DNA from: Bacteroidota bacterium
GTDB taxonomy: Bacteria > Bacteroidota > Ignavibacteria > UBA10030 > UBA8401
DNA length: 64,000 nucleotides
Assembly (NCBI GenBank): GCA_035506275.1
Contig: DATJPT010000006.1
Coordinates: 284,635 to 348,634 of the forward strand
Direction of reading: 5' to 3'
Shown here piece by piece: positions 2,716 to 61,600 of the stretch. A model generated the notes under the pieces. It made no database searches, had not been told where the DNA came from, and saw only the letters and a program-made list of their open reading frames with translations. Position numbers and translations under genes: made by a program. Positions within the stretch are counted from its first letter, which is position 1. Each line of letters opens with the position of its first letter.

Positions 2716-2769
2716 CTGTTTTTTCCCTCCCAAAATTTCCCCCCGCTTTGGTATTGTCCTAATTTCACA

Positions 2770-3095
2770 ATGTTCCTTTCTTTCCGAGAAAGAAAGGAAC
2801 CAAAGAAATCCTTCGAAATCGTAACGCGCGCACCCGACGATTTCGATAGATGACCCAAAAGCTGCCGGGTTTTCAAAACGCGGAATCGGCGGACGTGTGT
2901 GTGTGTTGAGGGCGATGCGTGCGTTTAGAAAACGGCAGGCAAGCGGGATGGCATGCGGGGCCGTTTTCTTCGGCTTGTGTGAAGGATAGCATCGCCAGGG
3001 TTCCGATTCCGCGAAGCTCTCTTTGCTTCTTTCTCTGGCTACAGAGAAAGAAGAAAGGGATATGAGAATTCAAATTAGGACACTACCCCCGCTTT
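2770..3095 (+). promoter_or_regulatory. copy 1 of a conserved palindrome-bounded 5' cis-element, upstream of glgP
   Basis: It contains the perfect palindromes CCTTTCTTTC-cgag-AAAGAAAGG (2775-2797) and CTTCTTTCTCTG-gcta-CAGAGAAAGAAG (3026-3053). Conserved blocks (acccgacgatttcga, ggaatcggcgg, ggttccgattccg) are shared with the copies at 46742-47200, 53372-53507 and 11230-11420 (reversed). Confidence 0.5.
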
Positions 3096-3133: not shown

Positions 3134-5287
3134 TTGACTTTTTCCCCGTCCACAATTGTGCAGGCTGAAATGAGCGAACGAACATCCGCACCTGATTCAT
3201 CCCTCTTGTTGACAAAACTTCAATCGCTTTCCGAAAATTTATGGTGGTCCTGGAATTTTGACGCGCAGGCGATCTTCCGCGACCTCTCTCCACAGGTGTG
3301 GGAGAGAACGCATCACAATCCCGTCGCCCTTCTCGCGGAGATGTCGAATGCCGAAGTTCGCGCGCGCCTAGGGGACAGCGAAATGGCGGCGCGCATAGAG
3401 TCCGCGTGGGAGAAATTCGACGCGTACATGAACAGCAAAAAGAAATGGGCGGTATCCGAAGCCAAGACATTGAAGGGGCCCGTCGCATACTTCAGCGCGG
3501 AGTTCGGCTTCCACGAAAGCTTGAGAACCTATTCCGGCGGCCTCGGCATCCTCGCCGGCGACCATACAAAGTCGGCAAGCGACCTCGGAGTGCCGTTCAT
3601 CGGCATTTCGCTCTTTTACCGCCAGGGATATTTCGAGCAGCGCATCGGGGCCGACGGATGGCAAAATGAGATGTACGTTTCCGCGGACCCGTCAAAGCTT
3701 CCGCTGAACATCGTCACGGACAAGAAGGGGGAGCCGATACGCTGCTCGGTCGAGATCGGGTTCAGCACGGTCCGCTTCCTCGCGTGGCAATTGAACGTCG
3801 GCAGGAGCGTCGTCTACCTGCTCGATACGAACGTCCGCGAGAACGAAGAACGCTTCCGCGACCTCACGGCACACGTCTACGGCGGCGACAGCACGACCCG
3901 CATCTCGCAGGAGATCATCCTGGGCGTCGGCGGGGTCCGGCTGCTCCGCGCCCTCAACATCCATCCGTCGACCTTCCACATGAACGAAGGGCATTCGGCG
4001 TTCCTCACGCTTGAGCTTCTGCGGGAGGCTCTCGAGAAGAACGGCTCCGCAAGCGCCGCGGCGGAGAGCGTGAAACGGCAGTGCGTGTTCACAACGCACA
4101 CGCCGGTTCCCGCCGGACACGACCGGTTCTCCATAGATCTGATGGAGCATTCTTTTTCATCGATGAGCAAGGCGATGAAGATCTCGACCGAAGAGCTGAT
4201 GGGATACGGACGGATCGACCCGGCCGACGCGAACGAGACGTTCTGCATGACGGTCCTCGCGCTGAAGATGTCGCGCGCAGCGAACGGCGTGAGCCAGCTG
4301 CACGGCCAGGTGAGCCGCGAAATGTGGAAGACGCTGTACAAGGAGACGCCCGCCGAGAACGTTCCGATCGGTTCGATCACGAACGGCGTCCACATCGGCG
4401 GGTGGCTCAACGAAACGTCCGAGCGGTTCTGGAACAAACATCTTGGCGGCGATTGGCAGGAACATTTTCTCGACCCCGCGTTCTGGACGAAGGCCGCTCA
4501 GGATCCGGCGATCTCGGACGAAGCGCTCTGGTCAATGCGTTATCAGCTGCGGCGGGAGCTTGTCGAATTTGCGCGGCACACGCTCCGCGTGCAGCATTCG
4601 CGCTTCGGCAACGGCACCGCCGTCTACGAGAAGGTCCTCAACCCGGACGTCCTCACGATCGGATTCTCGCGGCGGTTTGCGACCTATAAACGCGCGCCGC
4701 TTCTCTTCACTGACCTCGAGCGGGCGATCCAGCTGTTCGGCGACGAAGCCCGGCCGGTGCAACTGATCTTTGCGGGCAAAGCGCATCCCCGCGACGATGA
4801 GGGAAAAAAATTCATCAAACAGGTCATCGACCTGACGAATAATCCCCGCCTCTTCGGAAAAGTCGTCTTCCTTGAAAACTACGACATCAACGTCGCGCGG
4901 CATCTCGTGGCGGGAGCCGACGTCTGGCTCAACAACCCGCGCCGTCCCCTCGAGGCAAGCGGAACCAGCGGACAGAAGGTCGCGATCCACGGAGGATTGA
5001 ACTGCAGCATCATGGACGGGTGGTGGCGCGAAGCGTGCGACAACACGAACGGCTGGGCGATCGGAAAGGACGAACCGCCGGCTCACGCAGAACAGCAGGA
5101 CATCGTCGATGCGGAGAATCTTTTTACGGTGATGAAGGAAAGCATCATCCCGGAATTTTATCACCGCGACGAACGGAATATCCCCCGCCGCTGGCTGCAG
5201 CGCGTGCGCCGGTCGATCGCAACGCTGGTGCCGCGCTACAACACGCACCGCATGGTCGCGGAGTACGTCAAGAAATACTACGTGTGA
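3134..5287 (+). CDS. glgP: alpha-glucan (glycogen/maltodextrin) phosphorylase, GT35 'alpha-glucan phosphorylase' subfamily
   Basis: 717 aa with the NLWWSWN N-terminal signature of the alpha-glucan phosphorylase subfamily and the pyridoxal-phosphate-region motifs. Position 3134 is a TTG; the ATG at 3170 is an alternative start. Confidence 0.9.
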   Translation: MTFSPSTIVQAEMSERTSAPDSSLLLTKLQSLSENLWWSWNFDAQAIFRDLSPQVWERTHHNPVALLAEMSNAEVRARLGDSEMAARIESAWEKFDAYMNSKKKWAVSEAKTLKGPVAYFSAEFGFHESLRTYSGGLGILAGDHTKSASDLGVPFIGISLFYRQGYFEQRIGADGWQNEMYVSADPSKLPLNIVTDKKGEPIRCSVEIGFSTVRFLAWQLNVGRSVVYLLDTNVRENEERFRDLTAHVYGGDSTTRISQEIILGVGGVRLLRALNIHPSTFHMNEGHSAFLTLELLREALEKNGSASAAAESVKRQCVFTTHTPVPAGHDRFSIDLMEHSFSSMSKAMKISTEELMGYGRIDPADANETFCMTVLALKMSRAANGVSQLHGQVSREMWKTLYKETPAENVPIGSITNGVHIGGWLNETSERFWNKHLGGDWQEHFLDPAFWTKAAQDPAISDEALWSMRYQLRRELVEFARHTLRVQHSRFGNGTAVYEKVLNPDVLTIGFSRRFATYKRAPLLFTDLERAIQLFGDEARPVQLIFAGKAHPRDDEGKKFIKQVIDLTNNPRLFGKVVFLENYDINVARHLVAGADVWLNNPRRPLEASGTSGQKVAIHGGLNCSIMDGWWREACDNTNGWAIGKDEPPAHAEQQDIVDAENLFTVMKESIIPEFYHRDERNIPRRWLQRVRRSIATLVPRYNTHRMVAEYVKKYYV

Positions 5288-11229: not shown

Positions 11230-11420
11230 ATAATTGCAACACAGGATACCTAAAGGCAGCGCCTTGGCCTAAATTCCGATAACCACTCTTCTTTCCCTGT
11301 AGGCAGGGAAGGAAGCAAACTCCCGCATTACGGGATCCGCCTTTCACAGTTTTGGAAAGCGGGAAGAGCTTCTTGGAATCGGAACCCTCTGGGATTGGGA
11401 AAGAGGCGCGGTTTATGAAA
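11230..11420 (-). promoter_or_regulatory. copy 4 (reverse orientation) of the conserved palindrome-bounded 5' cis-element, upstream of the MerR-family gene
   Basis: The reverse complement matches copies 2 and 3 (tcccgctttccaaaactgtgaaaggcgg...; gaatcggaacc). A P2-type palindrome cttctttccctg-tagg-cagggaaggaag lies at 11287-11314 with partly compensatory arm changes. Confidence 0.45.
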
Positions 11421-11689
11421 TCGCGACACCACCATAAAGCGGCTCTCACCCCTTTAAATTACTACTTTTGTGTGATTGAATTGTCCCGATCCAGAAATGT
11501 ATATTGATCATCATTGTGCCCGGAGACACGGCGGCGCCGCTCTTAAAAAAAATATTTTGCGTTTAGACGATTTTAACGTATATTTGACAAAGAATTATTC
11601 GAAACCATTCATTGCCTGATGGGATCTTGATTCTTCCCCCTTTCCGCTATCGTAGCTAATTTCACACACTAACATCGAGGAGTCAAACA

Positions 11690-12948: not shown

Positions 12949-15606
12949 ATGATTCCCGCCGCCGCGCTGATGCTTGGCGGCTGCAACATCGGAGAGGATA
13001 ATGAAGATCCTGTCGTGCGATCGCAGGAGCTCCGCTCGAAAGCCGCAGAAGAGGCGGGAGCGCATGACTTCCTTCATGCGGAAGAACATCTCACGCAGCT
13101 CTTCCCGATCGACCAGCAGATGCAGCAGTGGGAACGGCTCGCCGAGGACCGCGCCGCCGCCGCCAAAGTTGAAACCTCACTCGGCCACTTTTCCGCCGCC
13201 ACGGAAAATTACAGCGAGGCGTGGAAGTACTACCGCGAGTCCGGAAACCATGCGGCCGAGGTCCGGATGATGAACGCCGTCGGAATTCTATCCGTGGAAC
13301 TGGGGGACTTCGAACAGGGGATCGGCATGCTCGCCAACGCGCTCGACGTCAGCAAGCTCGCATCCAACAACGAGCCAGACCCCGAAACGAGCATGAACCT
13401 CGGCAACGCGTATTGCTGGTCGGGGCAATACGAAAACGCGCTCGCTCAGTTCACTTCCGCGCTGGCGGTGTTCAATAAACGGCGGTCTTCCCCTTCGGTC
13501 GTCCGGGCTCTTTCGGGTGTCGGCTATGCCGATGCCAGGCTTGGAAAAAGGGACGAGGCCCTGACCGCGTTTGCAACGGTCGAGAACATTGTCAGCACCG
13601 TCCCGAACGTGATCGTGAAGGGGGAATTCAATTACGATAAAGGAAGGGGGCTCGAAGCGCTCGGAGAATGGAGCGATGCGGCGCAATCGTTCCACGACGG
13701 CATCGGCATCCTTGAAGATCTCCCGAACAGTCAAAAGAACGAACAGACGAACGACCTGCTGATTCTCCTCTACACGGCCCTCGGCAAGGTCTACGCCCAC
13801 AATTTTGCCTACCAGCTCGCAAAGCAAAGCTTCATCGAAGGGTACTCGCTCGCCAAAGACGCCGGCAGAAAAATCGCCATCGGCTATTTATTGACCGCGA
13901 TCGCCGACTGCGAACGGAAAATCACAGCGGTGAACCCGGACCAGCAGGCCACGATCGCCGCCGGAACATACTACGAGCAGGCGATGAACCTCTTTTCGCG
14001 GAACGGCAACATCTCCGGCGAAGCGTACGCCAACTACAAGCTGGGAATGATGAAAGAGGAAGAGGGGAACACGGACGGCGCTCTCGCATTCTACCGGCGC
14101 GCGTTCGAACTGCGCAGCGGACAGTCCGGCGAGTTCAACAACTGGGGGGAGGACGAAGAATTTTTCGGGATGCGGCGTGGGGAGGCGGCTGAAGGGATCT
14201 CCTTCTCCGATGAGACGTACTGGTACGAGCCGCTGGTCATTCTGCTTGCACGCCAGGGGCGCGCGGAAGAGGCGCTCGACATCTTCGAACAGGGAAAGAC
14301 AGGATCTCTCGCGGCCCGGCTCCGTTCATTCCCCTTCCAATACCGGGACAAGAGCACGCAGCAGAGCGTCGAGGCGGTCCGTCGTCAAATGCATGCGCTC
14401 AGCGTGAAAGAGGCAGAACTCGCTTATCAGAAGGGGTTGAATGCGAATCAACGCGACGGTGCTGGGATCGCATCGCTTGCCACAGACATCGCATCCGCAC
14501 GCACAGCGCTGTCGGCCAATGCATCGGCGCTTGCACAAAAGGATCCCCAGCTCGAAATTCTCTTCCGCACGCCGGCATTCCAGGAAACGGAGTTCCGTTC
14601 AGCGCTGACCTACGGCACGGTCGTGCTCGATTATCTCATCGCCGAGGACCGCATCGTTATTTTTGTGGTTTCCTTCGACGGCATGGGACGGCAGATGCCG
14701 GTCAGCGTCGTGGAAGTGCCGATCTACAAGGATATCGTGCTTGAGAAGGTCCGCCAGTACGACCTGATGCTCAACGAGCACATCCACAGCATCGGGACGG
14801 GATATTTTCAGACGACCGACATCGAACGGCTGTCGCAGGAGCTGTACAATTATTTTCTGCGCCCCGTGGAGCGGCTGTTCGTGCAGCGCGTGGTCATCAT
14901 ACCGCCGCGCGAGATGGAGAATATTCCGTTCCATGCGTTCACCCGCTCGACCAACGAAGGGGTGAAGCCGATGGTGGAGATCGCCGATGTCTCTTACCTG
15001 CCGTACCTCGCCGCGGCGAAAAGCATTCCGCCTCCCCCCCGGTTCATCAACTCCGTCGTCGCCATGGGAAATTCGCGGGGGAACAACTGGCCGCTCGACT
15101 TTGAATTGCGCGACATCCGGAGTTTCTTCCGCGAGACGGCCGTCTATGTCTCGCAGAACGCCGGCGAGAAACAGCTGTTCGGATCGTCGGGGGACGTGCT
15201 TCAGCTTTCGACCGACTTCGCGACCGACACGCTTTTCCCCGGCCGCTCATCGTTCGTCCTGGCGAGCGGAAGCATCACGGACCCGGATGCCGAAATTCCG
15301 GTTGCGAATTTCCTGAGCCTGCATCCGTACCCCGTCGTCTATCTTTCCGACGAGCAGCCCGGCGTCTCGGGACTGACGCCGCTCTATGCCGCGGTGCTGA
15401 TGATGAACGGCTCGTCCAACATCATCCTCACCATGCGGCCGTCCGACGTGAAGCCGAATAAATTCTTCAGCGAAAAATTTTATACCGCGCTGGCCCGGGG
15501 GAGCAGCGTGAACGACGCCTACCGCTCCGCCGTCATCGCCATGAGCAAGTCTGCCGCGTTCAGCGCCCCCTACCAGTGGTCGCAGTACTTTAAGTTTGGG
15601 AAGTGA
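12949..15606 (+). CDS. TPR-repeat lipoprotein with C-terminal CHAT (caspase-like) domain, catalytic dyad apparently substituted
   Basis: Lipobox LMLGGC at the ATG 12949. N-terminal TPR repeats (LGNAYCWSGQYENALAQF...). The C-terminus aligns by eye to the CHAT domain (IPFHAF; PVVYLSDEQPGVSG where LVVLSACETG is expected; FYTALARGSSVNDAYRSAV; PYQWSQYFKFG). The track ORF starts upstream at 12847. Confidence 0.55.
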   Translation: MIPAAALMLGGCNIGEDNEDPVVRSQELRSKAAEEAGAHDFLHAEEHLTQLFPIDQQMQQWERLAEDRAAAAKVETSLGHFSAATENYSEAWKYYRESGNHAAEVRMMNAVGILSVELGDFEQGIGMLANALDVSKLASNNEPDPETSMNLGNAYCWSGQYENALAQFTSALAVFNKRRSSPSVVRALSGVGYADARLGKRDEALTAFATVENIVSTVPNVIVKGEFNYDKGRGLEALGEWSDAAQSFHDGIGILEDLPNSQKNEQTNDLLILLYTALGKVYAHNFAYQLAKQSFIEGYSLAKDAGRKIAIGYLLTAIADCERKITAVNPDQQATIAAGTYYEQAMNLFSRNGNISGEAYANYKLGMMKEEEGNTDGALAFYRRAFELRSGQSGEFNNWGEDEEFFGMRRGEAAEGISFSDETYWYEPLVILLARQGRAEEALDIFEQGKTGSLAARLRSFPFQYRDKSTQQSVEAVRRQMHALSVKEAELAYQKGLNANQRDGAGIASLATDIASARTALSANASALAQKDPQLEILFRTPAFQETEFRSALTYGTVVLDYLIAEDRIVIFVVSFDGMGRQMPVSVVEVPIYKDIVLEKVRQYDLMLNEHIHSIGTGYFQTTDIERLSQELYNYFLRPVERLFVQRVVIIPPREMENIPFHAFTRSTNEGVKPMVEIADVSYLPYLAAAKSIPPPPRFINSVVAMGNSRGNNWPLDFELRDIRSFFRETAVYVSQNAGEKQLFGSSGDVLQLSTDFATDTLFPGRSSFVLASGSITDPDAEIPVANFLSLHPYPVVYLSDEQPGVSGLTPLYAAVLMMNGSSNIILTMRPSDVKPNKFFSEKFYTALARGSSVNDAYRSAVIAMSKSAAFSAPYQWSQYFKFGK

Positions 15607-15617
15607 GATGTCAGAAA

Positions 15618-15660
15618 GCAGAAGACAGGAGACAGTAAGCAGTTAGCAGTGAGCAGGCAG
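15618..15660. repeat. heptamer tandem repeat (RCAGNRA)x6
   Basis: gcagaag acaggag acagtaa gcagtta gcagtga gcaggca, immediately after the CHAT gene stop. Confidence 0.6.
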
Positions 15661-15661
15661 A

Positions 15662-16095
15662 TACTATCGCTGTCCATGTCATTCTGAGGAGGAGCGTTCT
15701 TTGCGACGACGAAGAATCTTTCTTGCCGTATAGATTCCTCGCTGCGCTCGGAATGACATGTAGTCGTTGGTGGCTCCGATATTCTCAAGGTTACTGGGCC
15801 TCTGTCATTCTGAGGAGGAGCGCTCTTTGCGACGACGAAGAATCTTTCTTACGGCGAAAGAGTGAAGGAACCGAGGTCAGTATAGATTCCTCGCTACGCT
15901 CGGAATGACATGTAGTTGTTGCTGGCTCCAATATTCTCAAGGATGCTGAGTCTCTGTCATTCTGAGGAGGAGCGCTCTTTGCGACGACGAAGAATCTTTC
16001 TTACGGCGAAAGAGTGAAGGAACCGAATTCAGTATAGATTCCTCGCTGCGCTCGGAATGACATGTAGTTGTTGGTGGCTCCAATATTCTCAGGGA
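15662..16095 (-). repeat. family-A tandem hairpin array (about 3.3 units, reverse orientation)
   Basis: Units of about 128 bp: GTCATTCTGAGGAGGAGCG...GAAGAATCTTTCTT...TATAGATTCCTCGCTGCGCTCGGAATGAC plus a linker. It is the reverse complement of the arrays at 22076-23200, 26440-27000 and 27355-27935. Confidence 0.7.
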
Positions 16096-17970: not shown

Positions 17971-18088
17971 GAGAGGAGACAGGAGTCAGTAGACAGTAAG
18001 CAGTAAGCAGTGAGCAGTAAGCAGTGAGCAGTAAGCAGTGAGCAGTGAGCAGTAGGAAGTAAACAGTGAGCAGTAAGCAGTAAGGAGT
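17971..18088. repeat. long heptamer tandem repeat (GCAGTRA)x~15, upstream of the ECF sigma gene
   Basis: ...cagtaagcagtgagcagtaagcagtgagcagtaagcagtgagcagtgagcagtaggaagtaaacagtgagcagtaagcagtaagg... read directly from the sequence. Confidence 0.85.
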
Positions 18089-22020: not shown

Positions 22021-22068
22021 GCAACAGGTAGCAGCTAACAGTTAACAGTTAGCAGTTAGCAGTTTATA
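22021..22068. repeat. heptamer tandem repeat (AACAGTT/AGCAGTT)x6
   Basis: aacaggt agcagct aacagtt aacagtt agcagtt agcagtt, directly upstream of the DUF2085 gene. Confidence 0.7.
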
Positions 22069-22075
22069 GCCATGA

Positions 22076-23200
22076 GTGAAAAGGGGATGCTTCGGAAGGA
22101 GCATCCGTCGCCGCGCTCCCCAGAATGACAGAGACTCAGCTTCCTTGAGAATATCGGAGTCACCAACAACTACATGTCATTCCGAGCGAAGCGAGGAATC
22201 TATACGGGAAGAAAGATTCTTCTTCGTCGCAAAGAACGCTCCTCCTCAGAATGACAGAGGCCCAGCTTCCTTGAGAATATTGGAGCCATCAACAACTACA
22301 TGTCATTCCGAGCGCAGCGAGGAATCTATACTGACCTCGGTCCCTTCACTCTATCGCCGCAAGAAAGATTCTTCGTCGTCGCAAAGAACGCTCCTCCTCA
22401 GAATGACAAGGACCCGGTTTCCTTGAGAATATTGGAGCCTCCAACAACAACATGTCATTCCGAGCGAAGCGAGGAATCTATACTGACCTCGGTTCCTTCA
22501 CTGTATCGCCGTAAGAAAGATTCTTCGTCGTCGCAAAAAAACGCTCCTCCTCAGAATGACATAGACTCAGCCTCCTTGAGAATATTGGAGCCACCAACAA
22601 CTACATGTCATTCCGAGCGAAGCGAGGAATCTATACTGACCTCGGTTCCTTCACTCTTTCGCCGTAAGAAAGATTCTTCGTCGTCGCAAAGAACGCTCCA
22701 CCTCAGAATGACACAGACCCAGCTTCCTTGGGAATATTGGAGCCACCAACAACTGCATGTCATTCCGAGCGCAGCGAGGAATCTATACTGACCTCGGTTC
22801 CTTCACTCTATCGCCGTAAGAAAGATTCTTCGTCGTCGCAAAGAACGCTCCTCCTCAGAATGACAGGGATCCAGCTTCCTTGAGAATATTGAAGCGACTA
22901 ACAACCATATGTCATTCCGAGCGTAGCGAGGAATCTATACTGACTTCGGTTCCTTCACTCTTTCGTCGTGCGAAAGATTCTTCGTCGTCGCAAAAAACGC
23001 TCCTCCTCAGAATGACAGAGGCCCAGCTTCCTTGAGAATATTGGAGCCACCAACAACTACATGTCATTCCGAGCGCAGCGAGGAATCTATGCTGTCGTCG
23101 TTTCCTTCACTCTTTCGTCGTGCGAAAGATTCTTCGTCGTCGCAAAAAACGCTCCTCCTCAGAATGACAGAGACGGAACTAGATTCCGCTACTTAATTAT
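22076..23200 (+). repeat. family-A tandem hairpin array (about 8.5 units of ~128 bp)
   Basis: It begins with the hairpin GGATGCTTCGGAAGGAGCATCC. Units run CAACAACTACATGTCATTCCGAGCG(A/C)AGCGAGGAATCTATAC[...]AAGAAAGATTCTTCGTCGTCGCAAAGAACGCTCCTCCTCAGAATGACAGAG-linker. Each unit is a long imperfect hairpin, and units differ by indels in the loop. The ORF-track 'proteins' containing CHSERSEESI are translations of these repeats. Confidence 0.8.
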
Positions 23201-26439: not shown

Positions 26440-27000
26440 ATTCTCCCAAAGGGATGCTTCGGAAGGAGCATCCGTCGCTGCGCTCCTCAGAATGACACAG
26501 ACTCAGCATCCTTGAGAATATTGAAGCCACCAACAACTATATGTCATTCCGAGCGCAGCGAGGAATCTATGCCGTTAGAAAGATTCTTCGTCGTCGCAAA
26601 GAACAGTCCTCCTCAGAATGACAGAGATTCAGCTTCCTTGAGAATATTGAAACCACCAACGACTACATGTCATTCCGAGCGAAGCGAGGAATCTATGCTG
26701 TCGTCGGTTCCTTCACTCTTTCGCCGTAAGAAAGATTCTTCGTCGTCGCATAGAACGCTCCTCCTCAGAATGACAAGGACCCGGTTTCCTTGAGAATATT
26801 GGAGCCACCAACAACTACATGTCATTCCGAGCGTAGCGAGGAATCTATGCTGTCGTCGGTTCCTTCACTTTTTCACCGTGTGAAAGATTCTTCGTCGTCG
26901 CAAAAAACGCTCCTCCTCGGAATGACATAGACTCAGTAACCTTAAGAATATCTGAGCCACCAACAACTACATGTCATTCCGAGCGTAGCGAGGAATCTAT
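26440..27000 (+). repeat. family-A tandem hairpin array (about 4.5 units)
   Basis: Same unit as 22076-23200. It starts with the GGATGCTTCGGAAGGAGCATCC hairpin and ends abutting the GIY-YIG gene. Confidence 0.8.
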
Positions 27001-27354: not shown

Positions 27355-27935
27355 CGAGCCAGCGAGGGGTCCCTGCGGTAAGAAAGATTCTTCGTCGTCG
27401 CAAAAAACGCTCCTCCTCAGAATGACACAGACTCAGCTTCCTTGAGAATATTAAATCCACCAACAACCACATGTCATTCCGATCGCAGCGAGGAATCTAC
27501 ACAGGAAGAAGAACGCTCTTCCTCAGAATGACATAGACTCAGCTTCCATGAGAATATTGGAACCACCAACAACTGCATGTCATTCCGAGCGCAGCGAGGA
27601 ATCTATACCGCAAGAAAGATTCTTCGTCGTCGCAAAGAACACTCCTCCTCAGAATGACAGAGACCCAGCTTCTTTGAGAATATTGGAGCCACCAACAACT
27701 ACATGTCATTCCGAGCGAAGCGAGGAATCTATGCGGCAAGAAAGATTCTTCGTCGTCGCAAAGAACGCTCCTCCTCAGAATGACAGAGACTCAGCTTCTT
27801 TGAGAATATCGGAGCCACCAACAACTACATGTCATTCCGAGCGCAGCGAGGAATCTATGGCGTTAGAAAGATTCTTCGTCGTCGCAAAGAACGCTCCTCC
27901 TCAGAATGAAAGAGACGGAACTAGACTCCGCTACT
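27355..27935 (+). repeat. family-A tandem hairpin array (about 4.5 units)
   Basis: Same unit as above. The terminal ~100 bp (27908-28005), including the AATCTGCG..CATCTGCGTAATCAC element, are near-identical to 23163-23262. Confidence 0.8.
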
Positions 27936-31315: not shown

Positions 31316-31925
31316 ACCCTTCGACGCGCTCCCCCGACTTCGTCGGGGTCGCTTGCTCAGGGTGAACAAGCATTTATTATAATTAAAGAATCTGCTCATC
31401 CTGAGCGAGCCTCGCGAAGCGAGGCGAGCCGAAGGACATCCTGAGCGAGCCTCGCATAGCGAGGCGAGACGAAGGACATCCTGAGCGAGTGGCGCGGCTT
31501 TATCGTGCCACGAGACGAATGACAAGTTGCGCCCTTCGACGCGCTCCCCCGACTTCGTCGGGATCGCTTGCTCCCCGAAGGGGTCCCTTAGGGGACAGGG
31601 TGAACAAGCATTTATTATAATTAAAAAATCTGCTCATCCTGAGCGAGCCTCGCGAAGCGAGGCGAGACGAAGGACATCCTGAGCGAGTGCTGCAGCTTTA
31701 TCGCGGCACGAGACGAAGGACATCCTGAGCGAGTGCTGCAGCCTTATCGCGGCACGAGACGAAGGACATCCTGAGCGAGTGGCGCGGCTTTATCGCGGCA
31801 CGAGACGAAGGACATCTTGAGCGAGTGGCGCGGCTTTATCGCGGCACGAGACGAAGGACATCTTGAGCCCTTCGACTCCCCTGTTCCGCTTTCAGCGGAA
31901 CAGGTTCGCTCAGGGTGAACAAGCT
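31316..31925. repeat. family-B tandem repeat array (two ~216-bp super-units containing ~46-bp GACGAAGGACATCCTGAGCGAG-N24 subrepeats; hairpin-rich)
   Basis: Subrepeat gacgaaggacatcctgagcgagtggcgcggctttatcgcggcacga x~8. Embedded hairpins CCTCGC-gaa-GCGAGG, CCCGAC-ttc-GTCGGG and CCTGTTCCGC-tttca-GCGGAACAGG. Confidence 0.75.
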
Positions 31926-35699: not shown

Positions 35700-35779
35700 C
35701 AGTGATCAGGGAACAGCGATCAGTGATCAAGGTTTTCGGGGGACGGGCGTTCTGACAAAGACGGCAACAATTTTTCCCA

Positions 35780-35965
35780 TTGAGAATATTGGAGCCATCA
35801 ACAACCACATGTCATTCCGAGCGCAGCGAGGAATCTATACGGTAAGAAAGATTCTTCGTCGTCGCAAAGAGCGCTCCTCCTCAGAATGACAGAGACTCAG
35901 CTTCCTTGAGAATATCGGAGCCACCATCAACCACATGTCACCTCGAGAACAACGAAGGGTCTATC
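35780..35965 (+). repeat. family-A hairpin repeat, about 1.5 units
   Basis: ttgagaatattggagccatcaacaaccacatgtcattccgagcgcagcgaggaatctatacggtaagaaagattcttcgtcgtcgcaaagagcgctcctcctcagaatgacagag... Confidence 0.65.
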
Positions 35966-36025
35966 CTGCTTCAACTTAAATGAAATTGAATTTCGTCCGC
36001 CAAATCCTTATTTTTAATTCTCTCA

Positions 36026-38176: not shown

Positions 38177-38282
38177 GGGCTACACAGAATGATGATATGG
38201 ATGATGGTCAAACGATATAGGTTCTTTGAAGGGATCGATGTGCCCCTTACTCCATTGCATAGTAGGAGAGTCTCCACTCTCA

Positions 38283-38303
38283 TTCCCAACGTCTCGTTGG
38301 GAA
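38283..38303. repeat. solitary REP hairpin of the RAYT-associated family
   Basis: TTCCCAACGTCTCGTTGGGAA, identical core to the REPs flanking the RAYT gene at 60.7-61.6 kb. Confidence 0.6.
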
Positions 38304-38772
38304 TGCCAATTTCTGACACTCCCTTTCAGCGGGCTGGGTTACGTTCCCGATCGAAGATCGGAAGCGAGGGAACTCCTCTCCCAACAAGCTCGGAGGCGGG
38401 GCTGCAACACTTCTATCCTCTTCATAAATGTCTTGACAATAGCCCTGAAAAGGAAGTATCTTAACCCGAACATAACGCTATAAGAACAACCGACTTCCTG
38501 GGGAAGACGACGGGGCGGTTGAGCTGAGGATATCAAAAGACCTCCGGATTTCCGGTTCACGGAATGAAGGAGGTCTTCGTTTTTTTGGGGGATGCAAAAG
38601 GCCTTTTCTGTGCCCAGGATCGGCGGAGAAGTTCTCAACGGACAAGCAGACAGCCGGCGTGCGTCATCACGCCAATGTCCTGCCGATCCATGCTCATGCG
38701 GCGAACAAATTATTCAACTTCAATCCCCGCTGGCTCACACGTCAACACTCATCAACTCGAAGGAGAAGAATA

Positions 38773-44651: not shown

Positions 44652-46211
44652 CTACTTCAACAGCAGCATCTTCTTGATCTGCACCTTCCCTCCAAACTCC
44701 AGCTGCGAAAAATAGATCCCGCTTGCGAGGTTCGATGCGTTGAACTGAACCTGATGATAGCTCCCGGCTGCAGCGTTGCCGTTGAACAGCGTCGCCACTT
44801 CCTGACCGAGGATGTTGTATACTTTGAGAACCGCCCGACCGTTCGACGGTACGGTGAATTGAATGATCGTCGACGGGTTGAAAGGATTCGGGTAGTTCTG
44901 CGACAGGGCGAACTGCAAGGGGATGCCGGCGGCACCCGAGGCTACACCGGTTGCCGTATTTGCGTAGATGGTGTAGATCGTGCAGGCGTTGTAATAGCTG
45001 TAGTCTCCGACTCCGTCGGAAAAATAGAGGTTTCCGTCAGCCGGAACCCAAAGGGAATCCTGCCATACTTCAAAGCTGGCGCTCGTCTCAAGTCCGTCGG
45101 AATCGTACAAGTATGAGGTCCGGTCGACATTCATCCATCGGCCGTTCGTCCATTGTTCATCCAGCTGTGTCAACGAGTTTCCGTTCGCATCATACGAGTA
45201 CGCAGTACTATCGAAGTTCACCCATTGGCTGTTCGTCCACTGTTTCTCCGATTGCGACAACGTTTGTCCAAATGCATTGTAGGTGTATACGGAGCTATCG
45301 ACGTTCGCCCATTCGCTGTTCCCCCATTGTTGGTTCACTTCCTCGAAAACCTCTCCGGTCGTGTAGTACTTGTAGGTCGTTCTCTCGACGTTAACCCATT
45401 GGCTGTTCGTCCACTGTTCAGTCAGCCCCGACAGGATTCTTCCGTTCGAACCGGCGGTATTGGTGTAGCGAAGGTCGTTGACCCATTGGCCGTTCGTCCA
45501 GACCTCTTTCAATACCGAGGACGTATTCCCGTACTCATCATATTCGTACGTATCGCGCCAGTCGCTCACCCACTGGCCGTTCGTCCAAAGATTCTCCCAG
45601 ACAGAGAAGAGGTTCCCGAATACATCGTAGGAATACGCCACGCTGTCAACGCTGACCCAATCTCCGTTTGTCCATTGTTCATGTACCCGCGCGATCTCAT
45701 CCCCGGAAAAATCGAACGTATATGTCACGCTGTCGACATTGACCCATTGGCCGAGCGCCCAATCCTCAAGCACTTCTGTCAACTCATATCCGGCCTCAGC
45801 ATAGAAGTAGCGGCAAGAGTCAACCCACTCGCCGTCGATCCATTTCTTCACAGAAATGGAGACCACCGATCCAAATGCATCGTGCGCAAACGTATATCTT
45901 GTCGTATCATATGTGCTGACGGCAGTGACGGTGTCGATGACATAAAATGCGGCCCCGGACGATCGGGAAGGGTTCAATACGCCGGTCCGGATCTTTTTGG
46001 CGAATGCGGAAACGGCAGGCATTTCCCGCACGTTGAGGGGTCCTCCTCGAGCGCCGGAAAAAAATGGGAGCGGCGGTACCCTCGCCCCGCCTCCGGGGTG
46101 ATTCGATTCACGCGGATCGCTTTTCGGCTCCTGCGAATAAGCCTCGCATGTGGACAATACCGTCAACAGAACGAAACCAAGAATGCTGACGACGGTGATC
46201 ATTTTTCCCAA
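44652..46211 (-). CDS. secreted T9SS cargo protein with ~23-aa Trp-rich tandem repeats (E.WTNGQWVNVDS..Y.YD..GN)
   Basis: 519 aa; signal peptide, at least 8 tandem repeats (QWTNGQWVS/N...), CTD ...QNYPNPFNPSTIIQFTVPSNGRAVLKVYNILGQEV...KMLLLK. Confidence 0.65.
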   Translation of the reverse strand: MGKMITVVSILGFVLLTVLSTCEAYSQEPKSDPRESNHPGGGARVPPLPFFSGARGGPLNVREMPAVSAFAKKIRTGVLNPSRSSGAAFYVIDTVTAVSTYDTTRYTFAHDAFGSVVSISVKKWIDGEWVDSCRYFYAEAGYELTEVLEDWALGQWVNVDSVTYTFDFSGDEIARVHEQWTNGDWVSVDSVAYSYDVFGNLFSVWENLWTNGQWVSDWRDTYEYDEYGNTSSVLKEVWTNGQWVNDLRYTNTAGSNGRILSGLTEQWTNSQWVNVERTTYKYYTTGEVFEEVNQQWGNSEWANVDSSVYTYNAFGQTLSQSEKQWTNSQWVNFDSTAYSYDANGNSLTQLDEQWTNGRWMNVDRTSYLYDSDGLETSASFEVWQDSLWVPADGNLYFSDGVGDYSYYNACTIYTIYANTATGVASGAAGIPLQFALSQNYPNPFNPSTIIQFTVPSNGRAVLKVYNILGQEVATLFNGNAAAGSYHQVQFNASNLASGIYFSQLEFGGKVQIKKMLLLK

Positions 46212-46372: not shown

Positions 46373-46741
46373 CGATTTACAGAAAAACGGAGCGTTGCCA
46401 GTATGCGACGAACGGATTGCTTATAGTGCTTACGAAATCTTGGAGCTTATCTTTGAAAAGGCATATTCAGAGGAGGGGTGTCACTGGGAATGAAAGTTAG
46501 GGGTTACTGCGAGAATGTCAAGCCCGCCACGGCTGTTGTGCGAAGCAGCAGTTGGGCCGGCTCGCTCCGGGGCGGTGAAGTTTGAGAATTTCCCCTCGCG
46601 CTCCGGTTATTTGTCATTCGGCTGAAAATATCGAGAACGAGATCCATTCCGTTCGCGATCGGAGATTGAGAACGAGTGAATCCGTCCCCTAAAAGCCGCG
46701 ATTGCGGGCCTGGAACGGTCCCCCTTGCGCTGGGTGTCTCA

Positions 46742-47200
46742 ATTTGATAGGATCCTTTCTTTCCGAGAAAGAAAGGATCCAAAGAAATCCTTCGAAATCG
46801 TAACGCTCAGATTCAATCCCAACCGCACTTCCGCCAATTTCGGTGCCAACAAGTTTTTTGAACATCATCATATGGGAATTTTTGCACCGAAATTGGAACC
46901 CTTCGATTGAATCCTTCCCCCTGCTCGTACCCGACGATTTCGAATAGCGATCAAATAGCGGCTGAAATTTTAAGCAAGGAATCGGCGGGTATGTGCGTTG
47001 GGCGCGATGCGCGCCTAAGGAAAACGGCAAGCTTGTGAGTCGGCATGAGGGTTCCGATTCCGAAGGGCTCTTCCCGCTTTCCAAAGCTATGAATGGCGGG
47101 ATCCCATAAAGCGGGACTTTGCTTCTTTCCCTGGCTAAAGAGAAAGAAGTGAGGTCTGGCAAAATTCGTGCTGAGACTCCCCTTTCGCCCCTCACCTTGA
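46742..47200 (+). promoter_or_regulatory. copy 2 (most complete) of the conserved palindrome-bounded 5' cis-element, upstream of the cNMP/GAF histidine kinase
   Basis: P1 CCTTTCTTTCcgagAAAGAAAGG (46754-46776); P2 CTTCTTTCCCTGgctaaAGAGAAAGAAG (47122-47149). It carries an extra ~110-bp insert with its own inverted repeat CCAATTTCGGTGC...GCACCGAAATTGG. Shared blocks with the copies at 2770, 53372 and 11230. Confidence 0.5.
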
Positions 47201-47227
47201 CTCTCGAAACGCTTATATGTAAATTTC
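47197..47227 (+). promoter_or_regulatory. putative Bacteroidetes-type promoter (-33 TTGACTC, 20-bp spacer, -7 TAAATTTC)
   Basis: ccTTGACTCtcgaaacgcttatatgTAAATTTC. The same geometry is seen at 52227-52257 and 53508-53538. Confidence 0.4.
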
Positions 47228-47285
47228 TGCTGATGTAAAAAAATTTGCTTGAAAATTTCTTCACGCCGAAACACTCAGGCCGCGC

Positions 47286-53328: not shown

Positions 53329-53360
53329 TTGAGTCCTGCCATTCAGCGTATAGGACTCAA
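53329..53360 (+). promoter_or_regulatory. perfect 9-bp inverted repeat TTGAGTCCT-N14-AGGACTCAA upstream of hrcA (candidate operator; not a canonical CIRCE)
   Basis: Read directly from the sequence. The canonical CIRCE TTAGCACTC-N9-GAGTGCTAA is not present anywhere upstream of hrcA-grpE-dnaJ in this window. Confidence 0.4.
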
Positions 53361-53371
53361 TTTATCGTGTT

Positions 53372-53507
53372 ATCTCTCTTCCCGCTTTCCAAAACTATGA
53401 AAGGCGGGATCCCATAAAGTGGGACTTTGCTTCTTTCTCTGGCTACAGAGAAAAAAGAGTGGTTTGGCATAATTCAAACTGAGACATCACCATCCCCCCC
53501 TCCTTCC
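53372..53507 (+). promoter_or_regulatory. copy 3 (3' half only) of the conserved cis-element, upstream of hrcA
   Basis: ctcttcccgctttccaaaactatgaaaggcgggatcccataaagtgggactttgCTTCTTTCTCTGgctaCAGAGAAAAAAG (P2 at 53430-53457), followed by the aattcaaactgagac block. Confidence 0.5.
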
Positions 53508-60665: not shown

Positions 60666-60790
60666 CCATCCACGAAGCGCACGAAGAACACCAAGAATAT
60701 TTTTACCTCGTTCCAAACGTTTCGTTGGAAACGCAAAAGCCTGTGTCATCTCGTTCCCAACGTCTCGTTGGGAACGGGAAGTTATGACAC
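60661..60790. repeat. REP-type palindromic repeat cluster (U1-U2) downstream of the RAYT gene
   Basis: Contains TTCCAAACGTTTCGTTGGAAA and TTCCCAACGTCTCGTTGGGAA hairpins. U1 (acagtagccatccacgaagcgcacgaag.acaccaagaatattttt.cctcgtt) is duplicated at 61513-61570. Confidence 0.65.
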
Positions 60791-61377: not shown

Positions 61378-61600
61378 TGCCCAATCGGAAATCGGGAACG
61401 CAAAAGCCTATGTCATCTCGTTCCCAACGTCTCGTTCGGAACGGAAAAGCCCCTGAAATTCTGTTCACCTTCGCTCCCAAACAGAGTTTGGGAGCAAGAT
61501 GGGACGAGAAACAGTAGCCATCCACGAAGCGCACGAAGTACACCAAGAATATTTTTGCCTCGTTCCCAACGTCCCGTTGGGATTGGAATGTTTAATTTTA
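61378..61600. repeat. REP-type palindromic repeat cluster (U2-hairpin-U1) upstream of the RAYT gene
   Basis: TTCCCAACGTCTCGTTCGGAA, CTCCCAAACAGAGTTTGGGAG and TTCCCAACGTCCCGTTGGGA hairpins, plus a direct copy of U1. Confidence 0.65.

Follow-up and report, generated by a model that had tools for sequence, protein, structure and literature searches.

The locus considered here raises a simple question: why does one non-coding module recur directly upstream of four different genes, namely glgP, a MerR-family gene, a cNMP/GAF histidine kinase gene and hrcA? The copies lie in a stretch of 64,000 nucleotides of a metagenomic contig (the window), and a preliminary description of it had left three answers side by side: (i) the operator or UP module of a shared stress and carbon regulon; (ii) a structured 5′-leader RNA; and (iii) a promoter-donating MITE. 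We conclude that the module is a MITE of an uncultured Bacteroidota lineage that borrows the transposase of an IS1-family element, and we put the probability of this reading at roughly 0.9. Four observations lead us to it: the module is bounded by terminal inverted repeats, 8-bp target-site duplications flank it, relatives show sites that are empty of it, and its ends recur in an IS1-family partner. The four copies in the window are insertions of one family of mobile element, rather than instances of a shared regulatory site or RNA leader.

All four copies are non-coding and are related to one another by blastn (E 1e-21 to 1e-38), and Pfam confirms the identities previously given to the flanking genes (glgP-like, MerR, cNMP/GAF histidine kinase and HrcA). 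Their limits are as follows.

2750..3087 (+): copy c1, 5′ of glgP; 338 bp, terminal repeats intact
11258..11433 (-): copy c2, 5′ of MerR; 176 bp, an internal-deletion derivative, with its 5′ terminal repeat GGTGGTGTCGCGATTTC at 11433-11417
46730..47179 (+): copy c3, the focal copy, 5′ of the kinase gene; about 450 bp, both ends degenerate and, according to the alignments, without the GCCGTTTTC extension hairpin
53351..53491 (+): copy c4, 5′ of hrcA; about 140 bp, an internal-deletion derivative, with its 3′ terminal repeat at 53475-53491 and an approximate 5′ boundary

In blastn comparisons within the window, the focal copy aligns with the hrcA copy at 85% identity over 139 nt (E 1e-38), with the MerR copy, on the opposite strand, at 84% over 109 nt (E 3e-28), and with the glgP copy in three pieces, the best of which is 98% identical over 54 nt. 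Full-length copies from the window and from related metagenome contigs measure 450-540 bp, and copies of all kinds range from 140 to 540 bp. Coding capacity is absent: ORFs within the element have no Pfam match, and subfamilies differ by indels of 20 and 44 nt that interrupt any reading frame through it.

The element is also found well beyond the window. A pattern search with its palindrome P2 (see below) recovered one copy in a GTDB representative MAG (L001) and ten matches on nine metagenome contigs (L002-L010), all of which, by blastn and MAFFT, are 75-95% identical copies of one element in unrelated flanks. There are accordingly eleven further copies at unrelated loci, drawn from four metagenomes and one GTDB MAG, and they adjoin unrelated genes, for example a transketolase-like gene or an adenosine-deaminase neighbour. 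One of these loci, L006, was considered as an ortholog of the glgP locus and rejected by BLASTP. A blastn search of a plasmid collection gave no match to the element, nor did viral contigs scanned with the P1 and P2 patterns.

The terminal inverted repeats are about 17-21 bp long, start with GGTAGTG and have the family consensus GGTAGTGTCTCAATTTG. In the fold of a full copy, the first 17 nt pair with the last 17 nt, GGTAGTGTCTCAATTTG with CAAACTGAGACAC(C/T)ACC, as a closing stem. The repeats begin 12-25 nt outside the palindrome P1 and finish about 30 nt past P2, which corrects the boundaries drawn previously, where the palindromes themselves were taken as the limits and 47180-47230, which is host DNA, was counted with the element. 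The ends of the focal copy are worn.

46730..46746 (+): 5′ terminal inverted repeat of c3, degenerate, CTGGGTGTCTCAATTTG against the consensus GGTAGTGTCTCAATTTG
47163..47179 (+): 3′ terminal inverted repeat of c3, truncated and degenerate (…AATTCGTGCTGAGACTC)

Copy c1 is flanked by 8-bp duplications, CCCGCTTT, at 2742-2749 and 3088-3095; the corresponding duplications are CTCCGTTG for L001 and GAGTCCTG for L004, and the pairs of L005b, L003, L002 and c3 differ by one mismatch. Flanks that match at 7 or more of 8 positions occur in 7 of 11 copies, compared with 5 of 110 mismatched controls, in which the 5′ flank of one copy was paired with the 3′ flank of another. The degenerate ends and imperfect duplications of c2, c3 and c4 count against the MITE reading.

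In the short copies c2, c4 and L008/L010, a 5′ terminal repeat can still be made out and runs on into downstream modules, so that these copies are internal-deletion derivatives rather than 5′-truncated forms; terminal repeats can be recognised at both ends of all short copies, although several are degenerate. Copy c1 has itself suffered an internal deletion of about 140 bp, comprising a hairpin of about 110 nt and a 20-nt stem insert, whereas its ortholog in a 97-98% identical strain (L005a, at L005:2209-2687) is full length, at 479 bp, and retains the ~110-nt segment. That segment had been regarded as an extra insert of a single copy. It is present in eight of nine full-length copies (alignment A3) and in the copy of L033, and is therefore ancestral, having been lost from the glgP copy.

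Related genomes reveal several of these loci without the element. At the MerR locus, two conserved blocks (ATTCAATCACACAAAAGTAGTAATTT and the promoter block GTTGCAATT...TATACTATTGCA) are exactly 31 nt apart in two related lineages, L017-19 and L020-22, whose MerR proteins are at least 90% identical, and the spacer is 215-216 nt in the window and close strains; 215 is the sum of 31, 8 and 176. The MITE is absent from three orthologous kinase loci (L028, L029 and L030, with 93, 90 and 89% protein identity), and the intergenic regions there measure 478, 191 and 265 nt, respectively, versus 1075 nt in the window. At hrcA, a relative with a 94% identical HrcA (L031) has just a remnant of about 33 nt of the element's 3′ end, with the same promoter behind it. 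Presence also differs between two 98% identical strains, because the copy L005b occurs in L005 and is missing from the window; as a clean empty site this case was rejected, since the window is also without about 62 nt of flank, and it is an imprecise polymorphism only. A side observation concerns L030:2381-2395, just 5′ of the kinase promoter in a MITE-free ortholog, where the sequence AAACTGAGTCACTGC resembles the 3′ terminal repeat of the MITE and could be either the remnant of an old insertion or a coincidence.

The element-free loci also settle whose promoters these are. The ccTTGACTC "−33 box" had been assigned to the 3′ end of the module; at the kinase gene, it falls within the following site.

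47197..47225 (+): host kinase promoter, outside the element, TTGACT-17-TAAATT; the sole promoter-like site in a scan of the region

Copies in the window end 16-28 bp 5′ of a native −33 TTG, and a TAnnTTT(G/C) box lies about 20 nt after the TTG, an arrangement that we take to be a promoter of the Bacteroidota type. The motif CCTTGACTCTC...GTAAATTTC upstream of the kinase gene is kept in the MITE-free L028-L030. Because the box is conserved in element-free orthologs, it belongs to the native promoter of the host and is no part of the element. The epithet "promoter-donating" must likewise be dropped: the core promoters of the MerR, kinase and hrcA genes are in host DNA 3′ of the element and are conserved in relatives without it. 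A scan of the interior found neither a promoter nor a terminator.

Searches of the window, of its flanks to about 10 kb and of the loci of the same strain gave no IS1-family partner, and none of the best 120 transposase homologs is recorded on the window's 412,972-bp contig. Two such elements were found in related Bacteroidota MAGs.

L033:2946-5914: autonomous element of 2,969 bp with perfect 21-bp terminal repeats (GGTAGTGTCCTAATTTGAAAT), an 8-bp duplication (TACTACTA) and a 279-aa transposase
L034:1991-4376: second autonomous element, in a related Bacteroidota MAG, with GGTAGTGTCC ends, a perfect 8-bp duplication (GAAGGGAG) and an IS1-family transposase

Both partners, at 2.4-3.0 kb, have ends near-identical to those of the MITE. 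The L033 element is located 5′ of hrcA in a relative with 86% HrcA identity, where it is inserted in the terminal repeat of a divergent MITE copy, and 19 of 20 positions agree between its own terminal repeat and the right end of c1. The transposase of this element matches the Pfam family DDE_Tnp_IS1 (PF03400) with 25.9 bits, above the cut-off of 24.1, and the NCBIfam IS1 model NF033558 with E 1e-16 and 61.5 bits, which lies below the equivalog cut-off of 100, so that the match holds at the level of the family only. The enzyme shares 24% identity with E. coli InsB (E 6e-6). Homologs number in the thousands in Bacteroidota and Ignavibacteriales MAGs, many of them named "IS1 family transposase" by the source databases. 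For the MITE itself, the left end aligns with the end of E. coli IS1A better than do all 2000 of 2000 shuffles. Similarity between IS and MITE is confined to about 22 nt at each end, and the MITE is not a simple deletion derivative of the IS. Like the negative search around the window, this limited overlap counts against the MITE reading.

The partner elements contain additional ORFs of 97-166 aa (L033:2969-3328, 3488-3781 and 4870-5274; L034:2308-2736 and 3752-4252), which may be accessory or passenger genes. The three in L033 have no significant match in Pfam or NCBIfam, and no Pfam match is on record for the two in L034. The region between a response-regulator gene and hrcA, where the L033 element resides, is a hot spot for insertion: it holds the deleted MITE of the window (53351-53491, +), the 33-nt remnant of L031 (~330-400) and, at L033:2446-5914, a reverse-oriented MITE with the 3-kb IS1-family element inside its terminal repeat.

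We suggest the following scenario. An IS1-family insertion sequence with matching ends would supply a DDE transposase that moves the MITE in trans, and staggered cuts of 8 bp by this enzyme would generate the 8-bp target-site duplications. The four window copies are separate insertions into promoter-containing intergenic DNA that left the core promoters intact; the glgP and kinase copies are near full length, and those at MerR and hrcA have decayed through internal deletion. The palindromes P1 and P2 and the long hairpins are the MITE's own interior, which the autonomous IS does not share, with their stems probably under purifying selection. Whether folded as a single strand or bound at dyad sites, they may be of use to the element itself and not to its neighbouring genes, although any precise role is a matter of speculation.

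This interior merits a further look. How strongly its stems are conserved is left unexplained if the element is simply a "junk" MITE. In the focal copy, the interior consists of the following parts.

46750..46780 (+): subterminal palindrome P1, GGATCCTTTCTTTC-CGAG-AAAGAAAGGATCC
46792..46943 (+): long hairpin with outer arms TCGAAATCGT and ACGATTTCGA and, nested within them, GATTCAATCC/GATTGAATCC and CCAATTTCGGTGC/GCACCGAAATTGG
46978..47061 (+): second long-range inverted repeat, GGAATCGG/CCGATTCC, around GCGATGC and GAAAACGGC
47072..47116 (+): optional module D, 45 nt with two hairpins (TCCCGC...GCGGGA), present only in some subfamilies
47122..47149 (+): subterminal palindrome P2, CTTCTTTCCCTG-GCTA-AAGAGAAAGAAG, present in 14 of 14 copies

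Both palindromes and all of the conserved blocks that had been reported are indeed present in the sequence, and the blocks acccgacgatttcga, ggaatcggcgg and ggttccgattccg turn out to be arms of long-range inverted repeats. The partner arms of GCGATGC and GAAAACGGC have been deleted from c3. Mapped on the alignments, the interior comprises about 120 pairs in 15-17 helices, which form the terminal stem, P1, two long composite hairpins, the optional module D and P2. Within P1, 10 of 13 pairs are invariant and two have compensatory changes (alignment A5). A compensated substitution in P2, previously placed in the hrcA copy, does exist, but in the MerR copy; the substitution in the hrcA copy is uncompensated.

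The fold has a z-score of −6.65 against shuffles. Across the alignment, 97.5% of cells are paired and 10 pairs have changes on both sides, compared with 4.2 ± 1.4 in shuffles, 0 of 500 of which reach the observed number; these pairing figures are inflated, in that the structure was derived from the same sequences used for the test. If partners are shifted by 1-3 columns, pairing falls to 38-54%. Differences per site pair amount to 0.05-0.06 in paired columns and 0.22 in unpaired columns, such that conservation is roughly fourfold higher in stems than in loops. The most divergent copy, that of L033, is 65% identical overall, with 88-90% identity in stems versus 55-58% elsewhere, and it keeps 98 of 103 comparable pairs, six of them through compensatory double changes.

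Conserved stems together with some compensatory changes suggest that selection has acted on dyad sites or on a single strand in its folded form. As a test for RNA, wobble pairs were compared between the strands, and no asymmetry was seen (10 column pairs with G-U and 9 with A-C). For this reason, and because the structure comes from the tested sequences, the data fit RNA, single-stranded DNA and dyad-symmetric protein sites alike. We read the combination of invariant stems and free loops as selection for the element's own propagation.

Two further interpretations of the interior can be considered. The first, which we regard as unlikely though worth stating, is that the hairpin-rich interior, some 400 nt long, functions as a structured nucleic acid that is mobile, either an RNA or a single-stranded DNA fold, for which the IS1-type ends are the vehicle. 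Possible roles would then be those of a trans-acting RNA affecting the partner transposase or of a decoy for a host factor, and the stems would be kept by selection on such a role and not by the chemistry of transposition. Whichever applies, the strongly conserved stems are the one feature that could repay follow-up.

The second interpretation, slightly less probable again, is that the element is first of all a non-coding RNA with a functional fold, about 400 nt long and either an sRNA gene or a module that is transcribed, which happens to sit inside terminal inverted repeats, and that this fold is why copies have been kept. The fold score, the paired cells and both-side changes, the slow change of stems relative to loops and the pairs retained in the L033 copy are in favour of such an RNA. 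Yet its stems are mostly invariant in sequence and its loops free, the reverse of what is typical of functional RNAs, the strands show no asymmetry, and the pairing figures carry the inflation noted above. The scan for an internal promoter or terminator was negative, and the copies decay through deletion and are absent from close relatives. Rfam gives nothing at gathering thresholds in the window except two tRNAs, and nothing at E ≤ 10 for a full-length copy.

A different kind of proposal is that the MITEs have been co-opted by the host as promoter-proximal modules, acting as activators or insulators or as sites for a P2-binding protein, and that they coordinate glgP, MerR, kinase and hrcA. 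We consider this improbable, and a little more so than an RNA gene. The uniform placement of the window copies is in its favour, since 4 of 4 end 16-28 bp 5′ of a −33 element, as is the survival of the promoter-side end at hrcA both in the window and in L031. In addition, 0 of 12 independent loci with known flanks (the upstream side of L009 being left out) lie between convergent genes, a mild preference for promoter-containing DNA that could reflect either targeting or survival. Against co-option, relatives have the same genes and core promoters without the element, and other copies adjoin unrelated genes. Orientation offers no help either. The downstream gene is on the same strand as the element at 10 of 12 loci, but agreement is automatic in divergent intergenic regions, and the 4 of 5 tandem regions that agree with gene orientation are not significant, so that an apparent orientation bias dissolves; at the hrcA promoter of L033, moreover, the MITE lies in the opposite orientation to c4. 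Finally, a vertically inherited operator or riboswitch-like 5′ leader of a stress and carbon regulon is very improbable; all that speaks for it is that four genes of a single window have the element upstream. Against it, the element has terminal inverted repeats and target-site duplications, varies in presence between 98% identical strains, is missing at the orthologs of MerR and the kinase gene, survives only as a remnant at that of hrcA, stands beside unrelated genes elsewhere, lies 5′ of the conserved promoter motifs and has no Rfam match.

The IS1-mobilised MITE shares the window with other repeats, one of which abuts the focal copy.

46567..46722 (+): copy of MITE2, another MITE-like family with no relation to the first, directly 5′ of c3 (blastn 69.5% over 105 nt, E 2.6e-8)

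MITE2 is about 145-165 nt long, with ends GGCAGTGTTGCGGTTTG and GGCATGTTACAGTTCC that resemble the IS26 type and a core palindrome CTCGTTCCCAA...TTGGGAACGAG. Other copies are at L004:6036-6200 and L009:~13850-13988, and fragments are found in the window at 38256-38375, 60684-60780, 61394-61499 and 61536-61589. It adjoins the first MITE at three separate loci (window, L004 and L009), with the target duplication common or abutting. The window further contains tandem arrays of a 152-nt repeat (also 126 and 106 nt) at 15728-16095, 22209-23174, 26571-27000, 27406-27916 and 35716-36015, whose units are 88-93% identical, occur in both orientations over 20 kb and have palindromes of the GTCATTCTGAGG...GAAGAATC type. 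Beside these arrays is a heptamer microsatellite, CAGTAAG x 13.6, at 17994-18088 (also at 15612-15650 and 22025-22063). Tandem repeats of 40 and 46 nt, 94-96% identical and built on CATCCTGAGCGAG...CGAAGGA palindromes, are located at 31397-31489 and 31663-31868, and an ORF at 44652-46211 (-) has seven periodic repeats of 87 nt, a T9SS C-terminal sorting domain and a weak RHS-repeat match.

Identification of the module as a MITE removes a false lead, in that the four "co-regulated" stress and carbon genes have in common no more than a transposon scar, which would otherwise pass for a regulatory motif in annotation pipelines and regulon-discovery tools. It also documents a MITE-IS pair of the IS1 family in uncultured soil Bacteroidota, with insertions that cluster just 5′ of core promoters. 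The repeated hits upstream of hrcA and the promoter-adjacent insertions should be useful for studying how such elements rewire the DNA upstream of promoters.

How does the element compare with known systems? Subterminal hairpins with similar arms near both ends, as P1 and P2 provide, are reminiscent of IS200/IS605-derived PATEs, REP sequences and omega-RNA scaffolds, and these hairpins, together with apparent 5′ truncations, had raised the suspicion of a large non-coding RNA, an omega-RNA or an IS200/IS605 end. That idea was dropped because terminal repeats, duplications and the 5′ ends of short copies were found; IS200/IS605-type systems have neither terminal inverted repeats nor a target duplication, whereas the MITE has both. 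No TnpA, TnpB or IscB gene is near the element.

The IS6/IS26 family, with the end consensus GGTTCTGTTGCAAA and a target duplication of 8 bp (PMC6807381), is another point of comparison. The MITE shares with it G1, G2 and G7 as well as the 8-bp duplication, but it lacks the conserved G10 and matches at 9 of 14 positions, and the partner transposase scores as IS1 (E 1e-16) rather than IS6 (E 0.039). For the IS1 family, ISfinder gives ends of GGnnnTG and direct repeats of 8-9 bp (PMC10425158, Table 8; PMC6807381). The ends of the MITE and its partners, GGTAGTG..., fit this pattern, the duplication is 8 bp, the left end of the MITE aligns with the IS1A end GGTAATGACTCCAACTTATTGATAGTG, and the partner transposase matches DDE_Tnp_IS1. 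Unlike IS1, the copies in the window are without any coding, the partner transposase is a single ORF of 279 aa, and the partners have two or three extra ORFs.

Bacterial MITEs that invite comparison include MITEAba12 (PMC6382973) and a MITE of P. gingivalis (PMC4596501), as well as Correia/NEMIS, ERIC/MITEEc1 and RUP. Like these, the present element is short and non-coding, has terminal inverted repeats and target duplications of fixed length, is intergenic, multicopy and strain-variable, and folds into stable hairpins. It differs in being long for its kind, at about 500 bp, in having an interior that is unrelated to the partner IS, and in its roughly 15 helices, with stems far better conserved than loops and with optional hairpin modules of 20, 44 and 45 nt. 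As an IS1-mobilised MITE, it is a further instance of an ordinary type of element; what is unusual is its hairpin-rich interior.
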